A stretch of DNA of 32,000 bases from an uncultured Chloroflexia bacterium (GTDB lineage: Bacteria > Chloroflexota > Ktedonobacteria > Ktedonobacterales > JADMIN01). Where the stretch lies: assembly GCA_963718915.1 (NCBI GenBank), contig CAVRAI010000006.1, positions 154,827 through 186,826 on the forward strand, given 5' to 3'. Every line of letters starts with the position of its first letter. The first letter of the stretch is position 1. Positions 4,651 to 28,090 of the stretch are shown piece by piece. The notes under the pieces are model-generated. The model saw only the letters and a program-made list of their open reading frames with translations. It was not told the origin of the DNA and made no database searches. The translations under genes and the position numbers were made by a program.

Positions 4651-4727
4651 CTAGGCTACCTCCCGCTGACTCCGATAGTGGCGTGTGTTTTCACAACCCG
4701 CAGCAGTATGAACGTTCACTGATTCCT

Positions 4728-4830
4728 CCGAACACCGCGCGTTGTGGCGGGCGAGGCAGACCGTAGCGTTGACGCAACGGTGAATTTCCCTCCACCCATT
4801 CGCCGTGGCCTTCAGGCTACGGCGCGCATC
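4728..4830 (-). repeat. Intergenic repeat family, copy A (reverse-complement orientation, partly degenerate)
   Basis: The forward sequence CCGAACACCGCGCGTTGTGGCGGGCGAGGCAGACCGTAGCGTTGACGCAACGGTGAATTTCCCTCCACCCATTCGCCGTGGCC... aligns along its length to the reverse complement of copy C (17533-17660). The alignment includes the hairpin at 4760-4781. Confidence 0.75.
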
Positions 4831-4861
4831 CCTCACTGCCAACGCTCCAAAGGAATCGCTA

Positions 4862-6031
4862 CTACTCGGCCCATTCGCCAACCTTCACATGCCCTTTGAA
4901 TAGATTGCGCGCGATAATGAAACGTTGAATCTCGTCGGTTCCATCGAAGATACGGAAGACGCGCATCTCGCGATACCAGCGCTCGATGGGCAGTTCGCGG
5001 GTGTAGCCCATGCCGCCGTGGATCTGAAGCATGCGGTCCACGACGCGGTTCGCCATATTCGCGCCGTAGAGTTTCGCCATCGCGGCCTGGTGGCGGTTAT
5101 CCTGACCACGGTCGGCGAGCCAGGCCGCCCGCAGCGTGATCCACTTTGTCGCCTCGATCTCCACCGCCGAGTCGGCAATCATCCACTGGATCGCCTGTCG
5201 ATCCGCCAGCGGCTGCCCGAAGGTGACGCGGTTCTTCGCGTGCTCGATGGACATCTCCATCATGCGCTCACATGCGCCTACCGCACGCGCGGGGATCGCC
5301 CAGCGCGCCGCGCCAATCCATTGCATCGCCGTATCGAACCCGTGCCCGACCTCGCCGAGCACGTTTTCTTCGGGCACGCGCACATCCTCAAAGATCAGCG
5401 CCGCTGGATCCCATGCCCCCATGGTAGCAATACGTTCGGAACGCCATCCCATCTCACGATCTACCAGGAAACACGTAATGCCGCCGTGTGGCCCCGCCTC
5501 CTTATCGTTGACGGCGAAGACCATCGTGAAGTCGGCCTCGTTGCCGTTGGTGATGAAGATCTTCTCGCCATTCAGCACCCACTCGTGGCCGTCTTTCACC
5601 GCCGACATACGGATGTTGCCCGCGTCCGATCCGGCTCCCGGCTCGGTGAGCGCGAAGCACGACCGGAGCGTGCCCTCGATGGTCGGTAGCAGGTAGCGAT
5701 GTTTCTGCTCTTCATTGCAGGCGTAGAGGATGTTATCGGCGGCGCCGCCGAAGCTGAATGGCACGAACGTCCGCCCCAGCTCGATCAGGGTCAGGCAGGT
5801 GGCGACTGAGCCGAGATTCGCTCCGCCATACTCCTCCGGCGTGTTGATGCCCCAGAAGCCCAGGTCGCGCGCCTTTGTCTGTAACGCGCGTAGTTGCCCC
5901 GGCTCTAATCCAGGGCGCCCCTCGCGCTCGTTGCGCAGGACATCGCCTTCCAGCGGCATCAATTCGCGCCGCACGAAGTCTCGCACCGTCTGCTGGATAA
6001 GCTTCTCTTCGGGAGCCAGCGTGAAGTCCAT
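4862..6031 (-). CDS. Acyl-CoA dehydrogenase
   Basis: The ORF track gives 4862-6097. I prefer ATG 6031 (MDFTLAPEEKLIQQTVRDFV...), preceded by GGAGGGTGATA. ACAD motifs are present: CFALTEPGAGSDAG, IFITNG, QIHGGMGYTRELPIERWYRE. Confidence 0.9.
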   Translation of the reverse strand: MDFTLAPEEKLIQQTVRDFVRRELMPLEGDVLRNEREGRPGLEPGQLRALQTKARDLGFWGINTPEEYGGANLGSVATCLTLIELGRTFVPFSFGGAADNILYACNEEQKHRYLLPTIEGTLRSCFALTEPGAGSDAGNIRMSAVKDGHEWVLNGEKIFITNGNEADFTMVFAVNDKEAGPHGGITCFLVDREMGWRSERIATMGAWDPAALIFEDVRVPEENVLGEVGHGFDTAMQWIGAARWAIPARAVGACERMMEMSIEHAKNRVTFGQPLADRQAIQWMIADSAVEIEATKWITLRAAWLADRGQDNRHQAAMAKLYGANMANRVVDRMLQIHGGMGYTRELPIERWYREMRVFRIFDGTDEIQRFIIARNLFKGHVKVGEWAE

Positions 6032-6965: not shown

Positions 6966-6991
6966 CGCCCCCTCCCGGACATCATCGTCCG

Positions 6992-7013
6992 TGATTTCAT
7001 ATATGAAATCACA
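6992..7013. promoter_or_regulatory. Perfect 22-bp palindrome GTGATTTCATAT/ATGAAATCAC, candidate IclR-type operator
   Basis: The sequence equals its own reverse complement. It lies 27-48 bp upstream of the iclR-family start codon (6965). Its TTTCA..TGAAA half-sites resemble known IclR/KdgR-family operators. Confidence 0.5.
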
Positions 7014-7170
7014 TTTCGTCGCTGCGGGATGTCAGCAGTATACACAGTTGAGTTCTGCCCGTCAACACACAAGATTGCGGTTGTTTCTTAGCAAATTTTG
7101 CGGACAGCCCAGCCGCGTGAGGTGGTTTTAGAATTTATGGGGGGACACGCGGCTGGCGGTTCATGTGGTT

Positions 7171-7265
7171 TTAGGTTCTGTTGACATTTATGCGGGACCA
7201 TTCAGCGTAATCAAACGAGCGCACACGCGAACACGAACGTTTCGCGGTCGAGATAGCCATGCTCT
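7171..7265 (-). mobile_element. Terminal fragment of a second, diverged IS5-family copy (terminal inverted repeat plus the last ~20 codons of the transposase)
   Basis: TTAGGTTCTGTTGACATTTATGCGGGACC (7171-7199) matches the complement of the right terminal inverted repeat of the 8660-9479 IS at 26/29. A 14-nt identical block CAAACGAGCGCACA occurs at 7212-7225 and at 8696-8709. The minus-strand translation ..LDRETFVFACALV* parallels ..LDRSFLGFVHFVCALVWLR*. The right boundary is approximate. Confidence 0.65.
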
Positions 7266-7308
7266 TTCGCTTTTCAAAGGAGTATGGGACACACTGGTAA
7301 ATTCTCCT

Positions 7309-7950
7309 TCAGGGTACATTAAGGATGATATCCTTCAATTCAATTAGAGTTTCGATTCGATAGCGAGCTGGTGAAAAATCCTGTCCTTTTGTAAAGTCGT
7401 TATAGACAATGACACAGTCAATACCGGCCGCCACGGCCGAGTTCAGCCCTCTGGATGAATCCTCTACAACCAGTGTCTCTTCTTTGGTGGCTCCGAAGCG
7501 TTGTAAGCCGGTCAGGTACGGTTCCGGGTGCGGCTTGGCGAACTTGTAGTCTTCGCGAACAAGGACGAAATCCATGAATTGTCTAATTTGGCGCTTTTCA
7601 TGGATAATTTCAAAATCCACACGTTTTGCGGTCGTCACGATGGCCATGCGGACATATTTCGACAGTTCAGCAAGAGTTTCAACGACGCCTTCAATCTCAA
7701 TGGGTTCTGTTCTAAGATATTCCTGGTAGTAATCATTACGAACCTCACGCAGCCTGCTAATGGTCTGTTCATCAATACCTGCCGCCGTGGCTTGCGCCCA
7801 AGTGCCCAATCCCTGGTTCATGTCCCGGAGGTATTGATCCTTGTCCAAAGGCAAACCAATGTCCGCCAGGGCGCGTTCTCCAGCTTTGTAATACCAGAAT
7901 TCGGTATCCACCAGGACACCATCATGATCGAAGAGTATGTACTTTTTCAC
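7309..7950 (-). CDS. HAD-superfamily hydrolase, subfamily IA (phosphatase / beta-phosphoglucomutase-like)
   Basis: All four HAD motifs are present: FDHDGVLVDT, VTTAK, KP, and EDSSRGLNSAVAAG. The ORF track start is TTG 7980. I prefer GTG 7950 (VKKYILFDHDG), preceded by GGAAAGGAAC. The gene is visibly AT-richer than its surroundings. Confidence 0.85.
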   Translation of the reverse strand: MKKYILFDHDGVLVDTEFWYYKAGERALADIGLPLDKDQYLRDMNQGLGTWAQATAAGIDEQTISRLREVRNDYYQEYLRTEPIEIEGVVETLAELSKYVRMAIVTTAKRVDFEIIHEKRQIRQFMDFVLVREDYKFAKPHPEPYLTGLQRFGATKEETLVVEDSSRGLNSAVAAGIDCVIVYNDFTKGQDFSPARYRIETLIELKDIILNVP

Positions 7951-8158
7951 TCTCTTGTTCCTTTCCGGTAGCCGCAGCAACCATGTGCGCCATCACGAAT
8001 CGCACCGTGATCACCGATAATAGTCAACACGATCGCACCTGATGTCTTCAGGCCTTCTAGTACTCAGTCCAGTTGGGTTATGACAGTCGAGGCAGATTGC
8101 TGGGGTCTGCTGGTGGCTGCGGCTCTGAGCGCCGGTCTGCCGCCGGTTCCCGGTAGGA

Positions 8159-8545
8159 CTAAGGCGCAAGGGGAAACGGTCCGGCTAATTGGAATAACAC
8201 GACAATTACGGCAATGAAAGCCAAGGGCAGGAGCGTGCCTCCATAGCCGAGCACGAGACCAGCCGTGGCGAGCACCGCGCCGCTGCTGCCTAGCATGGCA
8301 CGACCGGCGCGGGCGAGATGGCCGAGCACGACGCCCATGACGCCGCAGGCTACGCTGAGGGCAAAGAACCACCCGAGGAGAAAGAACCATCCGTGTAGGG
8401 AAAAGATTACAGCGGTATAGGCTCCGAAGAGGAGGAGACTGAGGATGCCACAGAGGAGGCTGGCGACGGCTGTGGCCAGCAGCCAGGGCGCAGTGGTGGC
8501 TGCGGCCTGAGGACCGTCGGGCAAAGGAAGGGGTGACGGTAACAC
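8159..8545 (-). CDS. Small hypothetical integral membrane protein (3-4 predicted TM helices, DUF4190-like appearance)
   Basis: The ORF track gives 8159-8626 (TTG). GTG 8545 has a much better SD (AGGAG plus 7 nt). Hydrophobic segments include LLATAVASLLCGILSLLLFG, GWFFLLGWFFALSVACGVMGVVLG and LVLGYGGTLLPLAFIAVIVVLF. I do not recognise a function. Confidence 0.55.
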   Translation of the reverse strand: MLPSPLPLPDGPQAAATTAPWLLATAVASLLCGILSLLLFGAYTAVIFSLHGWFFLLGWFFALSVACGVMGVVLGHLARAGRAMLGSSGAVLATAGLVLGYGGTLLPLAFIAVIVVLFQLAGPFPLAP

Positions 8546-8655
8546 CAGCTTACTCCTCGGACTACCTAGCGTCCCACTGTCGCAGTGTGTGGGCGCCAAC
8601 GTGACAGATGCTAGCGGCCGAAGCAATCGCTGTCAAGTTCTCTGTGGACTGGGCA

Positions 8656-9483
8656 CTAGGTTCTTTTGCCATTTAGGCAGGGCCTTCACCGCAACCAAAC
8701 GAGCGCACAAACGAAGTGGACAAAGCCGAGAAAGGAGCGGTCCAGTTTCTCGAAACGCGAGAAGATGCGGCGAAAGTGCTTGAGTTTATTGAAGCAGCAT
8801 TCGACCAGATGGCGTTCGCGGTAGACCCAGGGATCGTACTCGCGTTTGACCTTGGCGCACTGATGCGGTGGAATGGCCGCCTCACAGCCGCGCTGATTCA
8901 CGTAGGCGATGAACGGCGCTCCGGCATAGCCCCGATCTGCCAGGACTTTCTGGAAGGTCAACGCAGTGAGCAACGCCTCGGCTTGGATGCTGTCGTGGCG
9001 TTGGCCAGGCGTCAAGATGACGCGTAAGGGATTGCCTAAACCGTCAACGGTGAGGTGGATTTTGCAACTGAAGCCGCCGCGACTCCGCCCGAGCGCTTGC
9101 GCCCCGTATTTTTTTGCGCGCTTGCGGCACAGGGATGGGCCCGCACAATCGTGGCGTCAATCATCCCATGTTCGGTATCGGGGTCGCTGGCCAACGCAGC
9201 GAGCAGGCGTTCCCACACCCCAGCTTCGCACCAGCGCACAAACCGCTTGTACACGCTATTCCACGCCCCATATTCCGCAGGCAGCAAGCGCCATTGCGCC
9301 ACTGCGGCTCATCCACTTCACCGCCTCCACGAAGCGGCGGCACGCCTGCTCATCTCGGCCGATGTAGGCCTGCGACTCCTGGCGCAAGAACGGGTGGATC
9401 TTGGTCCAGTCGGCGTCGCTCAATCGAATGTCGGTCATGCCTCCTACTCTAGGGGGTCCTGCCTAAATGTCAACAGAACCTAG
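8656..9483 (-). mobile_element. IS5-family insertion sequence (IS427/IS1031-like size): 820-bp element 8660-9479 flanked by CTAG/CTAG target duplication
   Basis: Terminal inverted repeats GGTTCTTTTGCCATTTAGGCAGGGCC (from 8660) and GGTCCTGCCTAAATGTCAACAGAACC (to 9479) match 26/29 when the flanking CTAG is included. CTAG lies directly outside both ends (8656-8659 and 9480-9483), fitting the YTAR target of the IS5 family. The interior encodes a DDE transposase. Confidence 0.85.
8686..9438 (-). pseudogene. IS5-family DDE transposase split over three reading frames
   Basis: The three minus-strand ORFs (9438-9256, 9302-9036, 9015-8686) join into one ~250-aa IS5-type transposase: MTDIRLSDADWTKIHPFL...WMSRSGA / [32 protein letters not shown]...[16 protein letters not shown] / [41 protein letters not shown]...LADRGYAG...YRERHLVECCFNKLKHFRRIFSRFEK. 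The first break is near 9294-9302. The second is at an A7 run (T7 on the plus strand, 9109-9115). Confidence 0.8.
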
Positions 9484-9508: not shown

Positions 9509-9632
9509 GTGGGCCTGCCGGAGCCTGCCAGCAAATGGGCCAGAGAGACCGGGAAATTCGCCGTAGCGTTCACGCTACGGCCTACCTCGCCCCACCGCAA
9601 AGCCCGTCTCCGTCGCACATGCTAAAACGACA
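9509..9632 (+). repeat. Intergenic repeat family, copy B
   Basis: Blocks shared with copy C: GTGGGCCTGCCGGAGCCTGCCAGC (24/24), AAATTCGCCGTAGCGTTCACGCTACGGCCT (28/30, both differences within the hairpin), CTCGCCCC and GCTAAAACG. The hairpin GCCGTAGCG-TTCA-CGCTACGGC is at 9560-9581. Confidence 0.8.
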
Positions 9633-9845
9633 TAAACCCCGCCTGAATGGCCTCGCTGCGCTCCGCCACGAAACCCGCGACGGCGGGTTGTAGCGATCCA
9701 CTCGCCAGCGGGTCTCGCGTTGGGACCCGGTCTGAGAGTCCGCGCAGGCGGACTTCGTGGCCGCAGGCCGTAAAGGCGCGACTTCAGTCGCCCGCCGATG
9801 CGCTTGCTTGCGCAAATCGAAGCTCTTGGGTAGACTAGGGCCACG

Positions 9846-16332: not shown

Positions 16333-17406
16333 ATGCGATCAAAGGTGATTTCGTTAGTCGCCATTGTCGTCGTCGTCATTGTCGCGCTCGCCGGTTGTGG
16401 TGAGAGCACGAGCAGCACGGGAGGAAACAAGAAAAACCCGTCAGATATCCATGTTGCGTTTGTCTATTGGACGACGGCCATTAATGCCATGTCGGAGATG
16501 GCGGCAGGGGCGCAATACGCCGGAGAGCAGTATCATGTCAACGTGCAGCTGCTGGCTCCGCCCAACCCCAACGACCCGCAGGCCGAAGTCAACCTGCTGC
16601 TGAACGCGGCCAAGACGGCGACCGACGGCATCGCAGTCGAGACGCTCGCGCCGGATGTCTTCGATCATCCTGAGGCCAACATCGTGAATTCAGGTATTCC
16701 GATTGTCGCGGTTGATACCGTTGCTCCGGCAGATACTGGCATCAAGACCTATGTCGGCAATGACAATGTCGCTGCGGGAGCCGCTCTGGCCGACGCCGCG
16801 CTGGCGAAGATTCCCGCAGACGCCAAAGGCACAGTAGTCATTGGTAACCCTATACTCGCCGTGCCAGTGCTCGCATTCCGCGCTCAGGGCATCAAAGACG
16901 AGTTTGCGGCGAAGCGCCCAGACATTCAGGTGCTTGGCCCGTTCCAGACGGCGAACGACCCGCAGGGCAACTATAACGCCTGGAATAACCTCGTCAACGC
17001 GCATCCGAACGCCCTCGCCTACCTTGGCGTTGGCGACCAGGATAGTGTCTCGCTTGCGAAGATCAAGACGGCGAACAACGGCAAATACCTCACCGGCGCC
17101 TTCGATCTCAACGACGCGACGATTCAGGCGGTGAAGGATGGCGTCAACTTTGGTCTGCTCGACCCATATCACTTCATGAAGGGCTACGTTGCCATGCGGC
17201 TGCTGATCGAGCACGCGCTCAATGGCACAGCCATTCCTGAGGGCTGGTGGAACACCGGGCATCTGATGGTTGACCAGACGAACATCGACCAGATCATCGC
17301 GCGCCAGGCGAGTCTTGACGCGAAGGGCGCCTACTACAAGCCGATCATCGCCCAGCAGTTCGCGAACCCATCGGCGTATATCAAACCGATGGATCAGGCA
17401 AAGTAG
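16333..17406 (+). CDS. Sugar-type (RbsB/Peripla_BP_4-like) ABC transporter substrate-binding lipoprotein
   Basis: The ORF track start is GTG 16324. ATG 16333 follows GGAGGTGGAG. Signal peptide with lipobox (ALAGC), then a type I periplasmic binding fold (IPIVAVDT, YVGNDNVAAG, YLGVGDQD). Confidence 0.88.
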   Translation: MRSKVISLVAIVVVVIVALAGCGESTSSTGGNKKNPSDIHVAFVYWTTAINAMSEMAAGAQYAGEQYHVNVQLLAPPNPNDPQAEVNLLLNAAKTATDGIAVETLAPDVFDHPEANIVNSGIPIVAVDTVAPADTGIKTYVGNDNVAAGAALADAALAKIPADAKGTVVIGNPILAVPVLAFRAQGIKDEFAAKRPDIQVLGPFQTANDPQGNYNAWNNLVNAHPNALAYLGVGDQDSVSLAKIKTANNGKYLTGAFDLNDATIQAVKDGVNFGLLDPYHFMKGYVAMRLLIEHALNGTAIPEGWWNTGHLMVDQTNIDQIIARQASLDAKGAYYKPIIAQQFANPSAYIKPMDQAK

Positions 17407-17532
17407 CCGCTCACTGTTTCTTGTAGCTTGCGGATTGTGCATGGTCTCGGCCTTGAAGGGCCGGAGTAATTGGGCAGAAGGCTTGAAAGCCTATCAGGGC
17501 GGGATGGCCATTATGAACTTTTAGAATTACCT

Positions 17533-17660
17533 CCGAACACGGTACTCGGGTGGGCCTGCCGGAGCCTGCCAGCGAATGGGGCGGGGCAAATTCGCCGTAG
17601 CATTCATGCTACGGCCTGCTCGCCCCGCCATCGCGCTGGGTGTTCGGGCTAAAACGTACA
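17533..17660 (+). repeat. Intergenic repeat family, copy C (most complete; nested inverted repeats)
   Basis: Three nested inverted repeats: CCGAACAC (17533-17540)/GTGTTCGG (17640-17647); GGCGGGGC (17580-17587)/GCCCCGCC (17622-17629); and the central hairpin GCCGTAGCA-TTCA-TGCTACGGC (17594-17615). It is homologous to 9509-9632 and, reversed, to 4728-4830. Confidence 0.8.
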
Positions 17661-17736
17661 AGTTCATGTATAGCCCAATGAGTCATACTCCGGCCATTTA
17701 TGGCCGAGGGAGTGCATCGATAGAAGCGAGGGACGC

Positions 17737-19254
17737 ATGAATACACTGCCCGATACGCTCAATGCGACCGGCATTCGTAAGTCGTATGGCGGGATTGCGG
17801 CCCTCAAAGGCGTAGACTTTCGCGTCCGCGCGGGAACAGTCCACGCACTGCTCGGCGAGAACGGCGCGGGCAAATCGACGTTGGTCAAGGTGCTGGTTGG
17901 GGCGACATCGCCCGATGCCGGAACGCTGCAACTCGACGGACGCCGGGTGCGCTTCAGCAGCACCGCCGATGCGGCGAGCCAGGGCATCGCGGTCGTCTCG
18001 CAGGAACTGAATCTCTTTCCTGACTTAAGCGTTCTGGAGAACCTCTTTGTCCTGCGTGAGCCACGCCGCGGGCCAGTCGTCGCGCGTGACCGTATGGCGC
18101 GCCTCGCCTCTCCGGTGATGGAGGAACTCGGTCTGCGGGTGAACATGCGCGCGCCTGTCTCATCGCTCTCCCTCGAACAGCGCCAGCTGCTGGAGATCGC
18201 GCGGGCGTTGATGATTAATCCGCGGGTGCTCATTCTCGACGAGCCGACCTCAGCGCTGCATATCCACCAGACCGAGCGACTGCACAACCTCCTGCGCACG
18301 CTCCGCCAGCGGAACGTCGCCGTCGTCTACGTCTCCCACATCCTGGAAGACGCGCTGAATCTCTGCGACGTCGTGACGGTTCTGCGCGATGGCGAGCGGG
18401 TGCTCGACGCCGTCCCCGCCGCGCACCTGGGGATCGATGAGATTGTCCGGGCGATGCTGGGCGAGAAGAAACAGCTTCCCGCGCGCCAGGATGTGACCCA
18501 CAAGCGCTACTCGCCGACTCAGGATGCCCTGCGCTTTGTCGATGTCACGGCGCCGGGGCGCCTCGATGCAGTCTCGTTCGCGGCTCCGGCAGGCTCCATA
18601 GTGGGCGTCGTCGGGTTGGCCGATTCGGGGCATCGCGATGCGCTGGCGGCGGCGGCGGGTCTGCTTCCGCTCTCTAGTGGGCAGATACAGCTACCGAATG
18701 GCGTGCCCATCCAACCGCGACGCCGGGCAGCCGTGCAGCAGGGGGTGGCGTTAGTCCCAGGGGATCGTCGGCGCGTCGGTCTGACACTCGACGCGCCTCT
18801 CTGGGAGAATATGGCGCAGGTGCGGTCGGTCGCGCTGGGGCGGGATGGCAGCCTCATCCGCCCCCATGTGCTGCGGGCGCGGGCGCGAGTTCGCATGGCC
18901 CAGCTTGGTATCCGGGCAAGCTCCGTGAATCAGGAGGCGGGCCGTCTCTCGGGCGGCAACCAGCAAAAAGTGGTGTTTGCCAAGTGGCTTGAAGCGAACC
19001 CCTCGGTGCTCCTGCTGGATGACCCCACGCGGGGCATTGATATTGGGGCAAAGGCCGAGATTTATGGGCTCATGCGCGATCTTGCGCGTCAGGGTGTCGT
19101 GCAGGTGCTGGCATCGACCGATCTCGAAGAACTCGCCACGATATGCGATACCGTGCTAGTCTTTTTCGGGGGGCGCATCTGCGCGACCCTCAGCGCAGAG
19201 CACCTGAACGCTCACACTATTCTTGAAGTCATGAATACCGGCAAACAGCCCTAG
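17737..19254 (+). CDS. Sugar-type ABC transporter ATP-binding protein with duplicated NBDs (RbsA/XylG-like)
   Basis: 505 aa. The first NBD has GENGAGKST, LSLEQRQLLEIARAL and ILILDEPTSAL. The second, degenerate NBD has LSGGNQQKVVFAKWL and LLLLDDPTRGID. Confidence 0.9.
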   Translation: MNTLPDTLNATGIRKSYGGIAALKGVDFRVRAGTVHALLGENGAGKSTLVKVLVGATSPDAGTLQLDGRRVRFSSTADAASQGIAVVSQELNLFPDLSVLENLFVLREPRRGPVVARDRMARLASPVMEELGLRVNMRAPVSSLSLEQRQLLEIARALMINPRVLILDEPTSALHIHQTERLHNLLRTLRQRNVAVVYVSHILEDALNLCDVVTVLRDGERVLDAVPAAHLGIDEIVRAMLGEKKQLPARQDVTHKRYSPTQDALRFVDVTAPGRLDAVSFAAPAGSIVGVVGLADSGHRDALAAAAGLLPLSSGQIQLPNGVPIQPRRRAAVQQGVALVPGDRRRVGLTLDAPLWENMAQVRSVALGRDGSLIRPHVLRARARVRMAQLGIRASSVNQEAGRLSGGNQQKVVFAKWLEANPSVLLLDDPTRGIDIGAKAEIYGLMRDLARQGVVQVLASTDLEELATICDTVLVFFGGRICATLSAEHLNAHTILEVMNTGKQP

Positions 19255-25019: not shown

Positions 25020-25070
25020 CGATTCCGGACATCGATTCCGGACACGATTCCGGACACGATTCCGGACACG
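25020..25070 (+). repeat. 12-bp tandem repeat CGATTCCGGACA x4.2 (first unit 13 bp)
   Basis: Read directly: CGATTCC at 25020, 25033, 25045 and 25057. Each unit contains the palindrome TCCGGA. Confidence 0.95.
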
Positions 25071-28034: not shown

Positions 28035-28090
28035 AAGCAACTGAGCAACTAAGCAACTAAGCAACTGAGCAACTGAGCAACTGAGCATTC
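28035..28090 (+). repeat. 8-bp microsatellite RAGCAACT x7 (AAGCAACT/GAGCAACT; last unit degenerate)
   Basis: Read directly: aagcaact gagcaact aagcaact aagcaact gagcaact gagcaact gagcattc. It lies in the SBP-permease spacer. Confidence 0.95.

Follow-up and report, generated by a model that had tools for sequence, protein, structure and literature searches.

A palindromic intergenic repeat family, probably mobile, in a soil Ktedonobacterales genome

The 32,000-nt stretch of DNA analysed here (the window) comes from a soil member of Ktedonobacterales (Chloroflexota) and holds three copies (A, B and C) of a palindromic intergenic repeat. [quoted passage not shown] The family is an undescribed one of a familiar, REPIN/MITE-like kind and not a conserved regulatory RNA. 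At all three sites relatives with the same gene order lack the element; the window copies are therefore recent, lineage-specific insertions of DNA that was recently mobile. The initial annotation of this stretch had proposed that copy C is either a REP/MITE-like element or one of a family of cis-regulatory or small RNAs. The former is borne out: the repeat is dispersed and palindromic, lies between genes, and is missing at the orthologous sites of close relatives.

The density is three copies in the 32 kb of the window, all extragenic, and none in ~75 kb of syntenic relatives. The copies and their parts are listed below.

17513..17667, plus strand: copy C, complete, 155 nt; between the stop codon of a substrate-binding protein (SBP) gene (17406) and the ATG of an ABC ATPase gene (17737), co-directional with both
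17513..17540, plus strand: left inverted end of copy C, ATGAACTTTTAGAATTACCTCCGAACAC; pairs with 17640-17667 and is 93% identical to the left end of the copy at locus L004
17640..17667, plus strand: right inverted end of copy C, GTGTTCGGGCTAAAACGTACAAGTTCAT
17583..17629, plus strand: REP-like unit of copy C, made of GGCAAATTC, the hairpin 17594-17615 (perfect 9-bp stem, TTCA loop) and CTGCTCGCCCCGCC; covariance model score 67.2 bits
7163..7174, plus strand: left terminus of copy B, ATGTGGTTTTAG; cut off from the rest of B by an insertion sequence (IS) complex at 7175-9480, its boundary set by the empty site at locus L013
9484..9633, plus strand: remainder of copy B, AAATAACCCC…GCTAAAACGACAT, with its REP-like unit at 9549-9595 and hairpin at 9560-9581
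4708..4861, minus strand: copy A; between the stop codon of an acyl-CoA dehydrogenase (ACAD) gene (4862-4864) and the start of an ABC ATPase gene (4650), co-directional with both

The SBP gene upstream of copy C (16333-17406) is of the Peripla_BP_4 type; its product is identical to protein P0126, and SBP homologues place the host in Ktedonobacterales. Copy A contains two hairpin units (4746-4792 on the minus strand and 4791-4837 on the plus strand) and a right inverted end at 4708-4735; its left end is truncated by approximately the first 9 nt and abuts the stop codon. Copies B and C are 77.6% identical over 116 nt (E 4e-21), A matches C with E 3e-9, and the E-values between copies span 1e-9 to 1e-21. 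The recurrence reported initially is thus real and far above chance. The longest perfect GC-rich hairpins of the window are the two 9-bp ones, at 17594-17615 and 9560-9581. The sole other 9-bp stem belongs to an AT-rich operator-like palindrome at 6991-7012, a perfect 22-bp sequence (GTGATTTCATATATGAAATCAC) which adjoins the start of an IclR-family gene; L013 and L015 conserve it, and it probably serves as the IclR operator.

All coordinates and strings of the initial annotation are exact. These include the SBP stop and the ATPase ATG, the 24/24 block common to B and C (GTGGGCCTGCCGGAGCCTGCCAGC), the copy C helices CCGAACAC/GTGTTCGG (17533-40 and 17640-47) and GGCGGGGC/GCCCCGCC (17580-87 and 17622-29), the perfect hairpin of copy C and its counterpart in B, and the copy A hairpin ACCGTAGCG-TTGA-CGCAACGGT with one T.T mismatch. 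The size of ~128 nt proposed for the element falls short of its extent, since copy C occupies 17513-17667 and has an extra outer helix, ATGAACTT/AAGTTCAT.

Members of the family are non-coding, long imperfect palindromes of 155-175 nt. Every complete copy starts with ATG and finishes with CAT, and the inverted ends of ~28 nt (ATGAAC-TTTTAG-AATTACCT-CCGAACAC) are shared by copies of different genomes. The REP-like unit of 47 nt consists of GGAAATTC, a 9-bp GC-rich stem with a TTNA loop, and CTGCCTCGCC (hairpin consensus GCCGTAGCN-TTNA-NGCTACGGC). Copy A and the copies at L004, L006 and L010 contain two such units facing each other; the element is therefore an inverted duplication. In B and C there is a single hairpin unit, the first having been replaced by the block GTGGGCCTGCCGGAGCCTGCCAGC. 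A solo 47-nt unit without inverted ends is found at L005 5485-5531. Owing to the inverted ends and inverted units, a single strand takes one of two folds, a single long hairpin or a clover made up of local ones. Within-copy complementarity of the 32-nt ends is no higher than between-copy complementarity, so the long ends behave as ordinary inverted repeats. Covariation between them is limited to terminal positions 4-6 (AAC/GTT, TGG/C.A, CAG/C.G; positions 4 and 6 on the six full copies).

The initial annotation had suggested a search for further copies, and relatives of the repeat were found in two Chloroflexota metagenome-assembled genomes (MAGs) and three soil-metagenome contigs (L004, L005, L006/L009 and L010). 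A core-pattern scan returned 5 stretches from the genome collection (2 real) and 7 from metagenomes (3 real), the rest being chance matches without flanking similarity. The same scan of viral contigs gave 0 matches, and a blastn search of plasmids gave none. Eleven open translated stretches through the core (three frame classes, five copies) had no match among 5.8 billion proteins, so no spurious open reading frames (ORFs) called over other copies came to light. A covariance model of the 47-nt unit, run over 142 kb of related loci, recovered its training copies only. The initial annotation had recognised no named family, and none fits: the window has no match in Rfam 15 at the gathering threshold, the best sub-threshold hit around copy C (E ≤ 10) being CRISPR-DR16 with 15.3 bits against a threshold of 35, and the repeat is not described in the literature searched.

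Empty sites were defined in syntenic relatives, whose SBPs are identical to that of the window at 96.6% (L024), 96.1% (L021), 95.5% (P0002, gene table only), 94.7% (L013/L014), 92% (L022) and 86% (L015-L020). The length of the SBP-ATPase spacer and the halves of the hairpins that were entered are as follows.

Window: SBP-ATPase spacer of 330 nt, with copy C
L024: 195 nt, without the element
L021: 165 nt, without the element
P0002 contig: 109 nt (gene table only)
L015: 88 nt, without the element
L022: 275 nt, without the element; other material is present there
17505..17512, plus strand: left half of the site C target hairpin, TGGCCATT, uninterrupted in L024
17669..17677, plus strand: right half of the site C target hairpin, TATAGCCCA, uninterrupted in L024
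7155..7162, plus strand, and 9634-9643: left half (GGCGGTTC) and right half (AAACCCCGCC) of the site B target hairpin, contiguous in L013

At site C the exact empty site in L024 reads GATGGCCATT^TATGGCCCAATG (the right side also given as TATGGCCC or TATGGCCCAATGCGTCATACTCC), and the filled site in the window reads GATGGCCATT, the element (ATGAAC…GTTCAT), a G and then TATAGCCC (also given as TATAGCCCAATGAGTCATACTCC). A second, intact copy of this target hairpin (CGGCCATTTATGGCCG) lies at 17691-17706 in the window, and L024 has one too. At site B the exact empty site in L013 is GGCGGTTC^AAACCGCGCC (in longer form GGCTGGCGGTTC^AAACCGCGCCTGAATGGCC; contiguous GGCTGGCGGTTCAAACCGCGCCTGAATGGCC). The filled site is GGCGGTTC, the element (ATGTGG…CGACAT) and AAACCCCGCC, or in longer form GGCGGTTC, the element from ATGTGGTTTTAG to GCTAAAACGACAT, and AAACCCCGCCTGAATGGCC. 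At site A, the ACAD-ATPase spacer measures 211 nt in the window versus 24 nt in L015, and in L013 and L022 it is occupied by a different hairpin repeat.

In both exact comparisons the element entered the dyad of a short hairpin that was already there (GCGGTTC^AAACCGC and GGCCATT^TATGGCC). A target duplication of 0-1 nt is possible in these two filled/empty pairs (L013 for B, L024 for C), and none of ≥2 bp exists. The copies at L004 and L006 are also flanked by palindrome halves, GGCGGTTA^TAACCG and CGCGGCATG^AAATGCCGCG respectively; the latter palindrome is a REP-like unit that L013 and L022 have in unbroken form. Immediately upstream of the insertions, the 4 nt vary (GTTC, CATT, GTTA, CATG).

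Whole elements are predicted to fold strongly as RNA (z -3.5 to -7.8), with the exception of copy B, which folds no better than its shuffles (z -1.0). Copy C reaches -68.6 kcal/mol in RNAfold, with z -3.5 on the plus strand, z -5.4 on the minus strand and z -5.65 with DNA parameters. The L006 copy forms one long hairpin (-85.7 kcal/mol, z -7.8) and the L004 copy a clover (-77 kcal/mol, z -4.6). The three nested helices described initially are reproduced by RNAfold in copy C but are not found family-wide. Across the six full copies, 91% of cells are paired in the terminal helix, 81% in the CCGAACA/TGTTCGG helix and 98% in the hairpin, as against 46-53% in the two middle helices of copy C. These two are features of copy C and not of the family.

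The compensatory changes noted in the inner hairpin hold, and are firmer with 10 units: 98.9% of cells form standard pairs, and in 3/9 pairs both partners change (G-C, A-U or C-G closes the loop, the fifth pair is U-A or G-C, and the outermost one G-C or A-U). On the added copies the substitutions stay compensatory; the covariation score is reached by 0/500 shuffles, and slid controls fall to 20-47% paired. All one-sided changes (5/5) produce G.U on the unit's own strand. As the units are mutually inverted, no single transcript carries both in the G.U-favourable sense. A divergent unit-like hairpin at L005 2904-2936 (GCCGCAGCA-TTCA-TGCTGCG), in which the fifth pair changes from T-A to C-G, scores 16 bits with the covariance model (E 0.35) and may be a chance match.

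The closest likeness to known systems is to REPINs, REP doublets that form hairpins and are mobilised by RAYT tyrosine transposases (PMC3116915, PMC2817692, PMC3733652). Both long-hairpin and clover folds have been described for REPINs and compensatory changes are common in them (PMC3116915). The repeat resembles REPINs and REP-BIMEs in being extragenic and in its short GC-rich hairpins, two inverted units separated by a spacer; this doublet is present in A, L004, L006 and L010, while B and C keep one unit. Further points in common are the long-hairpin (L006) or clover (L004) fold, the compensatory hairpin changes, the lack of target duplication, the solo units and the mosaic association with other hairpin modules. 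The differences are also clear. The repeat is 155-175 nt long versus roughly 70-110 nt in REPINs and has extra inverted ends of ~28 nt outside the doublet. Its GTAG lies in the stem, whereas in REPs a GTAG (or CGTC) tag is unpaired at the end of the stem (PMC3733652). REPINs number tens to hundreds per genome, while this repeat is seemingly of low copy in two MAGs; it also inserts into other hairpins at their dyad, a behaviour not described for REPINs, and its host phylum is Chloroflexota. REPINs are defined by linkage to a RAYT gene flanked by the same REPs, and no RAYT gene has so far been tied to this repeat. Insertion at such a dyad without target duplication is the one mildly unusual property of the family.

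The MITEs ERIC/IRU, Correia/NEMIS and RUP are likewise non-coding elements of 100-200 bp with terminal inverted repeats (PMC3184786, PMC10969869). They too are intergenic, are often co-transcribed with flanking genes, vary in presence or absence among close relatives, and can form long RNA hairpins that affect mRNA stability. Unlike the present repeat, they leave a target duplication (TA for Correia) and, where the parent is known, have ends in common with a parent IS; neither was found here. A third comparison is with ISs that target REP palindromes, namely IS1397/ISKpn1/ISPsy8 of the IS3 family and IS621, ISPa11 and ISPpu9/10 of the IS110 family (PMC1525189). These insert at a fixed point of a short extragenic palindrome, and the IS110 members do so without typical inverted ends or duplications. 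However, they are autonomous, 1-1.5 kb long and encode a transposase, whereas the repeat is 155 nt and non-coding. The target hairpins entered here moreover differ in sequence, so recognition seems to depend on structure rather than on sequence. PATE, a non-autonomous IS200/IS605 derivative, is also small, non-coding and hairpin-bearing, leaves no target duplication and has an orientation bias, and TnpB genes occur in the present lineage. IS200/IS605 elements, however, have no inverted ends and insert 3' of a fixed tetra- or pentanucleotide, whereas the upstream 4 nt are not conserved here.

The family would be moved in trans by an enzyme acting on folded single-stranded or cruciform DNA. Our best guess, a tentative one, is that this is a RAYT or an IS200/IS605-type HUH enzyme, because no duplication is left, the architecture is that of a REP doublet, two alternative folds exist and the compensatory changes are of REPIN type (PMC3116915). 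IS605-family TnpB genes lie at the same regions in relatives, so IS200/IS605-type elements are present in the lineage. The hairpin would stay paired since only copies with an intact hairpin would be recognised and propagate, and palindrome-templated correction may add to this. A rather doubtful variant is structure-targeting transposition, in which a palindrome enters the dyad of unrelated hairpins without duplication and builds nested palindromes via a fold-back single-strand intermediate. The co-varying terminal positions 4-6 hint at such an intermediate; the enzyme would be one not yet linked to elements of this kind (a divergent HUH/RAYT, an IS110-like or another recombinase).

Several points weigh against a REPIN/MITE-like mobile family mobilised in this way. 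The mobilising gene was not found, and no Y1 transposase gene is evident in the window. Inverted ends of ~28 nt are more typical of DDE-type MITEs, and GTAG/CTAC is base-paired in the 9-bp stem (GCCGTAGCN…NGCTACGGC), not an unpaired tag as in RAYT-associated REPs (PMC3733652). The strict core pattern occurs just once per genome in both MAGs, so the copy number may be low. The number of independent copies is seven. One extra, unexplained G is found at the copy C junction and copy A is without one end. Finally, the mRNA-stabilising effect considered below is proposed purely by precedent from REP/BIME.

The main rival explanation is that of a classical MITE. A DDE transposase supplied in trans would recognise the ~28-bp ends of an internally deleted IS and move it, and the hairpins would be incidental. 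The clear inverted ends common to copies of different genomes, the size of 155-175 bp, the lack of coding capacity, the intergenic position and the presence/absence polymorphism among relatives would all suit it, and the genome has active DDE-type ISs, including an IS5-family IS inside copy B. DDE transposition, however, normally leaves a target-site duplication, and neither exact filled/empty pair has one of ≥2 bp. No IS with these ends was found in the window, in 26 loci or in ~140 kb of related sequence, the ends of the resident IS5 element are unrelated, and the solo 47-nt unit without ends (L005 5485-5531) suits REP-like behaviour better. We therefore regard a DDE-type MITE as unlikely.

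A structured cis-regulatory or small RNA family under selection on the RNA helix is considerably less probable still. Strong predicted folds, compensatory hairpin changes, the placement of A and C within operons in sense orientation and co-directionality with the upstream gene in 6/6 cases are what such a family would show. But five relatives with flanking genes 86-96.6% identical do not have the element in their orthologous spacers, so it is not a conserved part of these operons, and no locus conserves it. Rfam has no matching family, and neither a promoter nor an intrinsic terminator is present; the two strands fold equally well; the hairpin units are inverted, each tolerating G.U on its own strand only; the middle helices of copy C are not conserved; and the flanking genes are functionally unrelated (ACAD, sugar SBP, release factor, kinase). 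Nor does the helix selection suggested initially point to a cis-regulatory or small RNA; compensatory change is known in mobile palindromic repeats such as REPINs (PMC3116915). The least probable account dispenses with a transposable unit: spread by recombination or gene conversion between existing intergenic palindromes, or precise deletion in the relatives. Copy B and the L004 copy do occupy matching positions in similar host elements (GGCGGTTn^nAACCG…TGCCTG.ATGGCC), an outcome that conversion among these elements could yield, and the intergenic regions mix hairpin modules of several kinds. Nevertheless, the hairpins entered by B, C and the L006 copy are not alike in sequence, so homology cannot direct the insertion. 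Five relatives at several levels of divergence lack the element at site C, and repeated precise deletion without flanking direct repeats would be unparsimonious.

Other identities were tried and rejected. In integron attC elements, which sit at the 3' ends of mobile gene cassettes, core sites (RYYYAAC … GTTRRRY) enclose an imperfect palindrome; the ends of the repeat (TCCGAAC…GTTCGGG and ATGAAC…GTTCAT) misfit GTTRRRY, and the flanking genes are syntenic core operon genes in element-free relatives. An intrinsic terminator was dismissed because the hairpin is followed by CTGCTCGCC and no T run, a CRISPR repeat because the copies are single and the score is sub-threshold, and a leader peptide because both strands have the terminal ATG, which in copy A runs antisense to the operon. 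A fixed target of the IS200/IS605 type is not compatible with the non-conserved upstream tetranucleotides.

Where there is an upstream gene, the copies are co-directional with it in 6/6 cases and lie 0-17 nt past its stop codon in 5/6. This orientation is suggestive (p about 0.03), fitting either strand-specific, replication-linked insertion or selection acting on the transcript. A scan of 17300-17800 showed neither a sigma-70-like promoter nor an intrinsic terminator. Because copies A and C are internal to operons and run in the same direction as the genes, they must be co-transcribed in polycistronic mRNA. A structure of -60 to -70 kcal/mol in the mRNA could be a barrier to 3'-5' decay as in REP/BIME, favouring the message of the upstream SBP. 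By that analogy mRNA stabilisation is plausible, and it would be a by-product, not the reason for the element's existence. If the host does use copies as 3'-end mRNA stabilisers after stop codons, the sense orientation of all six would be explained. REP elements at malE-malF and hisJ-hisQ likewise lie past a periplasmic binding-protein gene in an ABC-transporter operon, a position that copy C shares.

Other insertions surround the copies, and two of them bear on copy B.

7175..9480, no strand assigned: IS5-family insertion complex, not part of the repeat; splits copy B within the left inverted end of B, at a TAG that is found to either side of the complex (7172-7174, 9481-9483)
7117..7162, plus strand, and 9634-9700: left (TTTTAGAATTTATGGGGGGACACGCGGCTGGCGGTTC) and right parts of B0, an older decayed relative of the repeat, present in L013 at 2290-2400; copy B lies in its hairpin

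The IS5-family complex is 2.3 kb long and has inverted repeats (GGTTCTGTTGACATTTA…), a direct repeat, and DDE_Tnp_1_2 and DUF4096 ORFs. It contains a complete IS of ~820 bp (8659-9480, with both of these ORFs) and an isolated second left end (7175-7231). Between its two left ends the complex therefore carries two further coding sequences, a HAD-hydrolase gene (7309-7980) and a DUF4190 ORF. The complex is absent from the syntenic relatives L013, L015 and L022. The sequence of B0 is TTTTAGAATTT…GGCTGGCGGTTC^AAACCGCGCCTGAATGGCC; since it is common to L013, it is older than the insertion of copy B. Copy B and the L004 copy occupy the same position, the loop of a B0-type hairpin, so the elements are nested.

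A second REP-like family, TTCGCGGCAT(G/A)AATGCCGCGGCTAA, has a 7-bp stem and a TGAA/TAAA loop (L013 1-75, L022 1095-1200, flanks of L006 924-1097). It forms tandem arrays in the ACAD-ATPase spacer of relatives and is also the target hairpin of the L006 copy. The remainder of the SBP-ATPase spacer in the window (17407-17512 and 17668-17736) is a mosaic of other small hairpin modules, among them CTCGGCCTTGAAGGGCCGGAG (17447-17467; also beside the L009 copy and in relatives) and AGGCTTGAAAGCCT (17490-17503). A C-rich hairpin (CCCCCTCCCCTAAAAGGGAGGGGG) stands right after the SBP stop codon in relatives, where the window has 38 unrelated nt instead. IS605-family TnpB genes (OrfB_IS605 / Cas12f1-like_TNB) are inserted in relatives, in the P0002 contig and at L022 17578-20006. 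One such gene has entered the IclR-BTAD spacer, where the window has copy B; different mobile elements have landed repeatedly in this spacer. Elsewhere in the window are a seemingly perfect 8-nt tandem repeat (AGCAACTG x6.5, 28036-28087), between an SBP_bac_5 gene (stop 28000) and a permease gene of an oligopeptide-type ABC operon, and a 12-nt tandem repeat (CGATTCCGGACA, x4.2, 25020-25070) upstream of a LacI-family gene.

To our knowledge, the small palindromic repeats known as REP, BIME, REPIN and MITE have received much study in Proteobacteria and hardly any in Chloroflexota. In annotation, awareness of the family keeps structured spacers of 150 nt in Ktedonobacteria from being taken for riboswitches or small RNAs, and it explains assembly breaks past genes in related MAGs. 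The two exact empty/filled pairs provide a concrete, testable clue to target choice by such elements. As it is missing from close relatives, copy C is a natural experiment in which the ratio of SBP to ATPase expression can be set against the presence of a large stem-loop.

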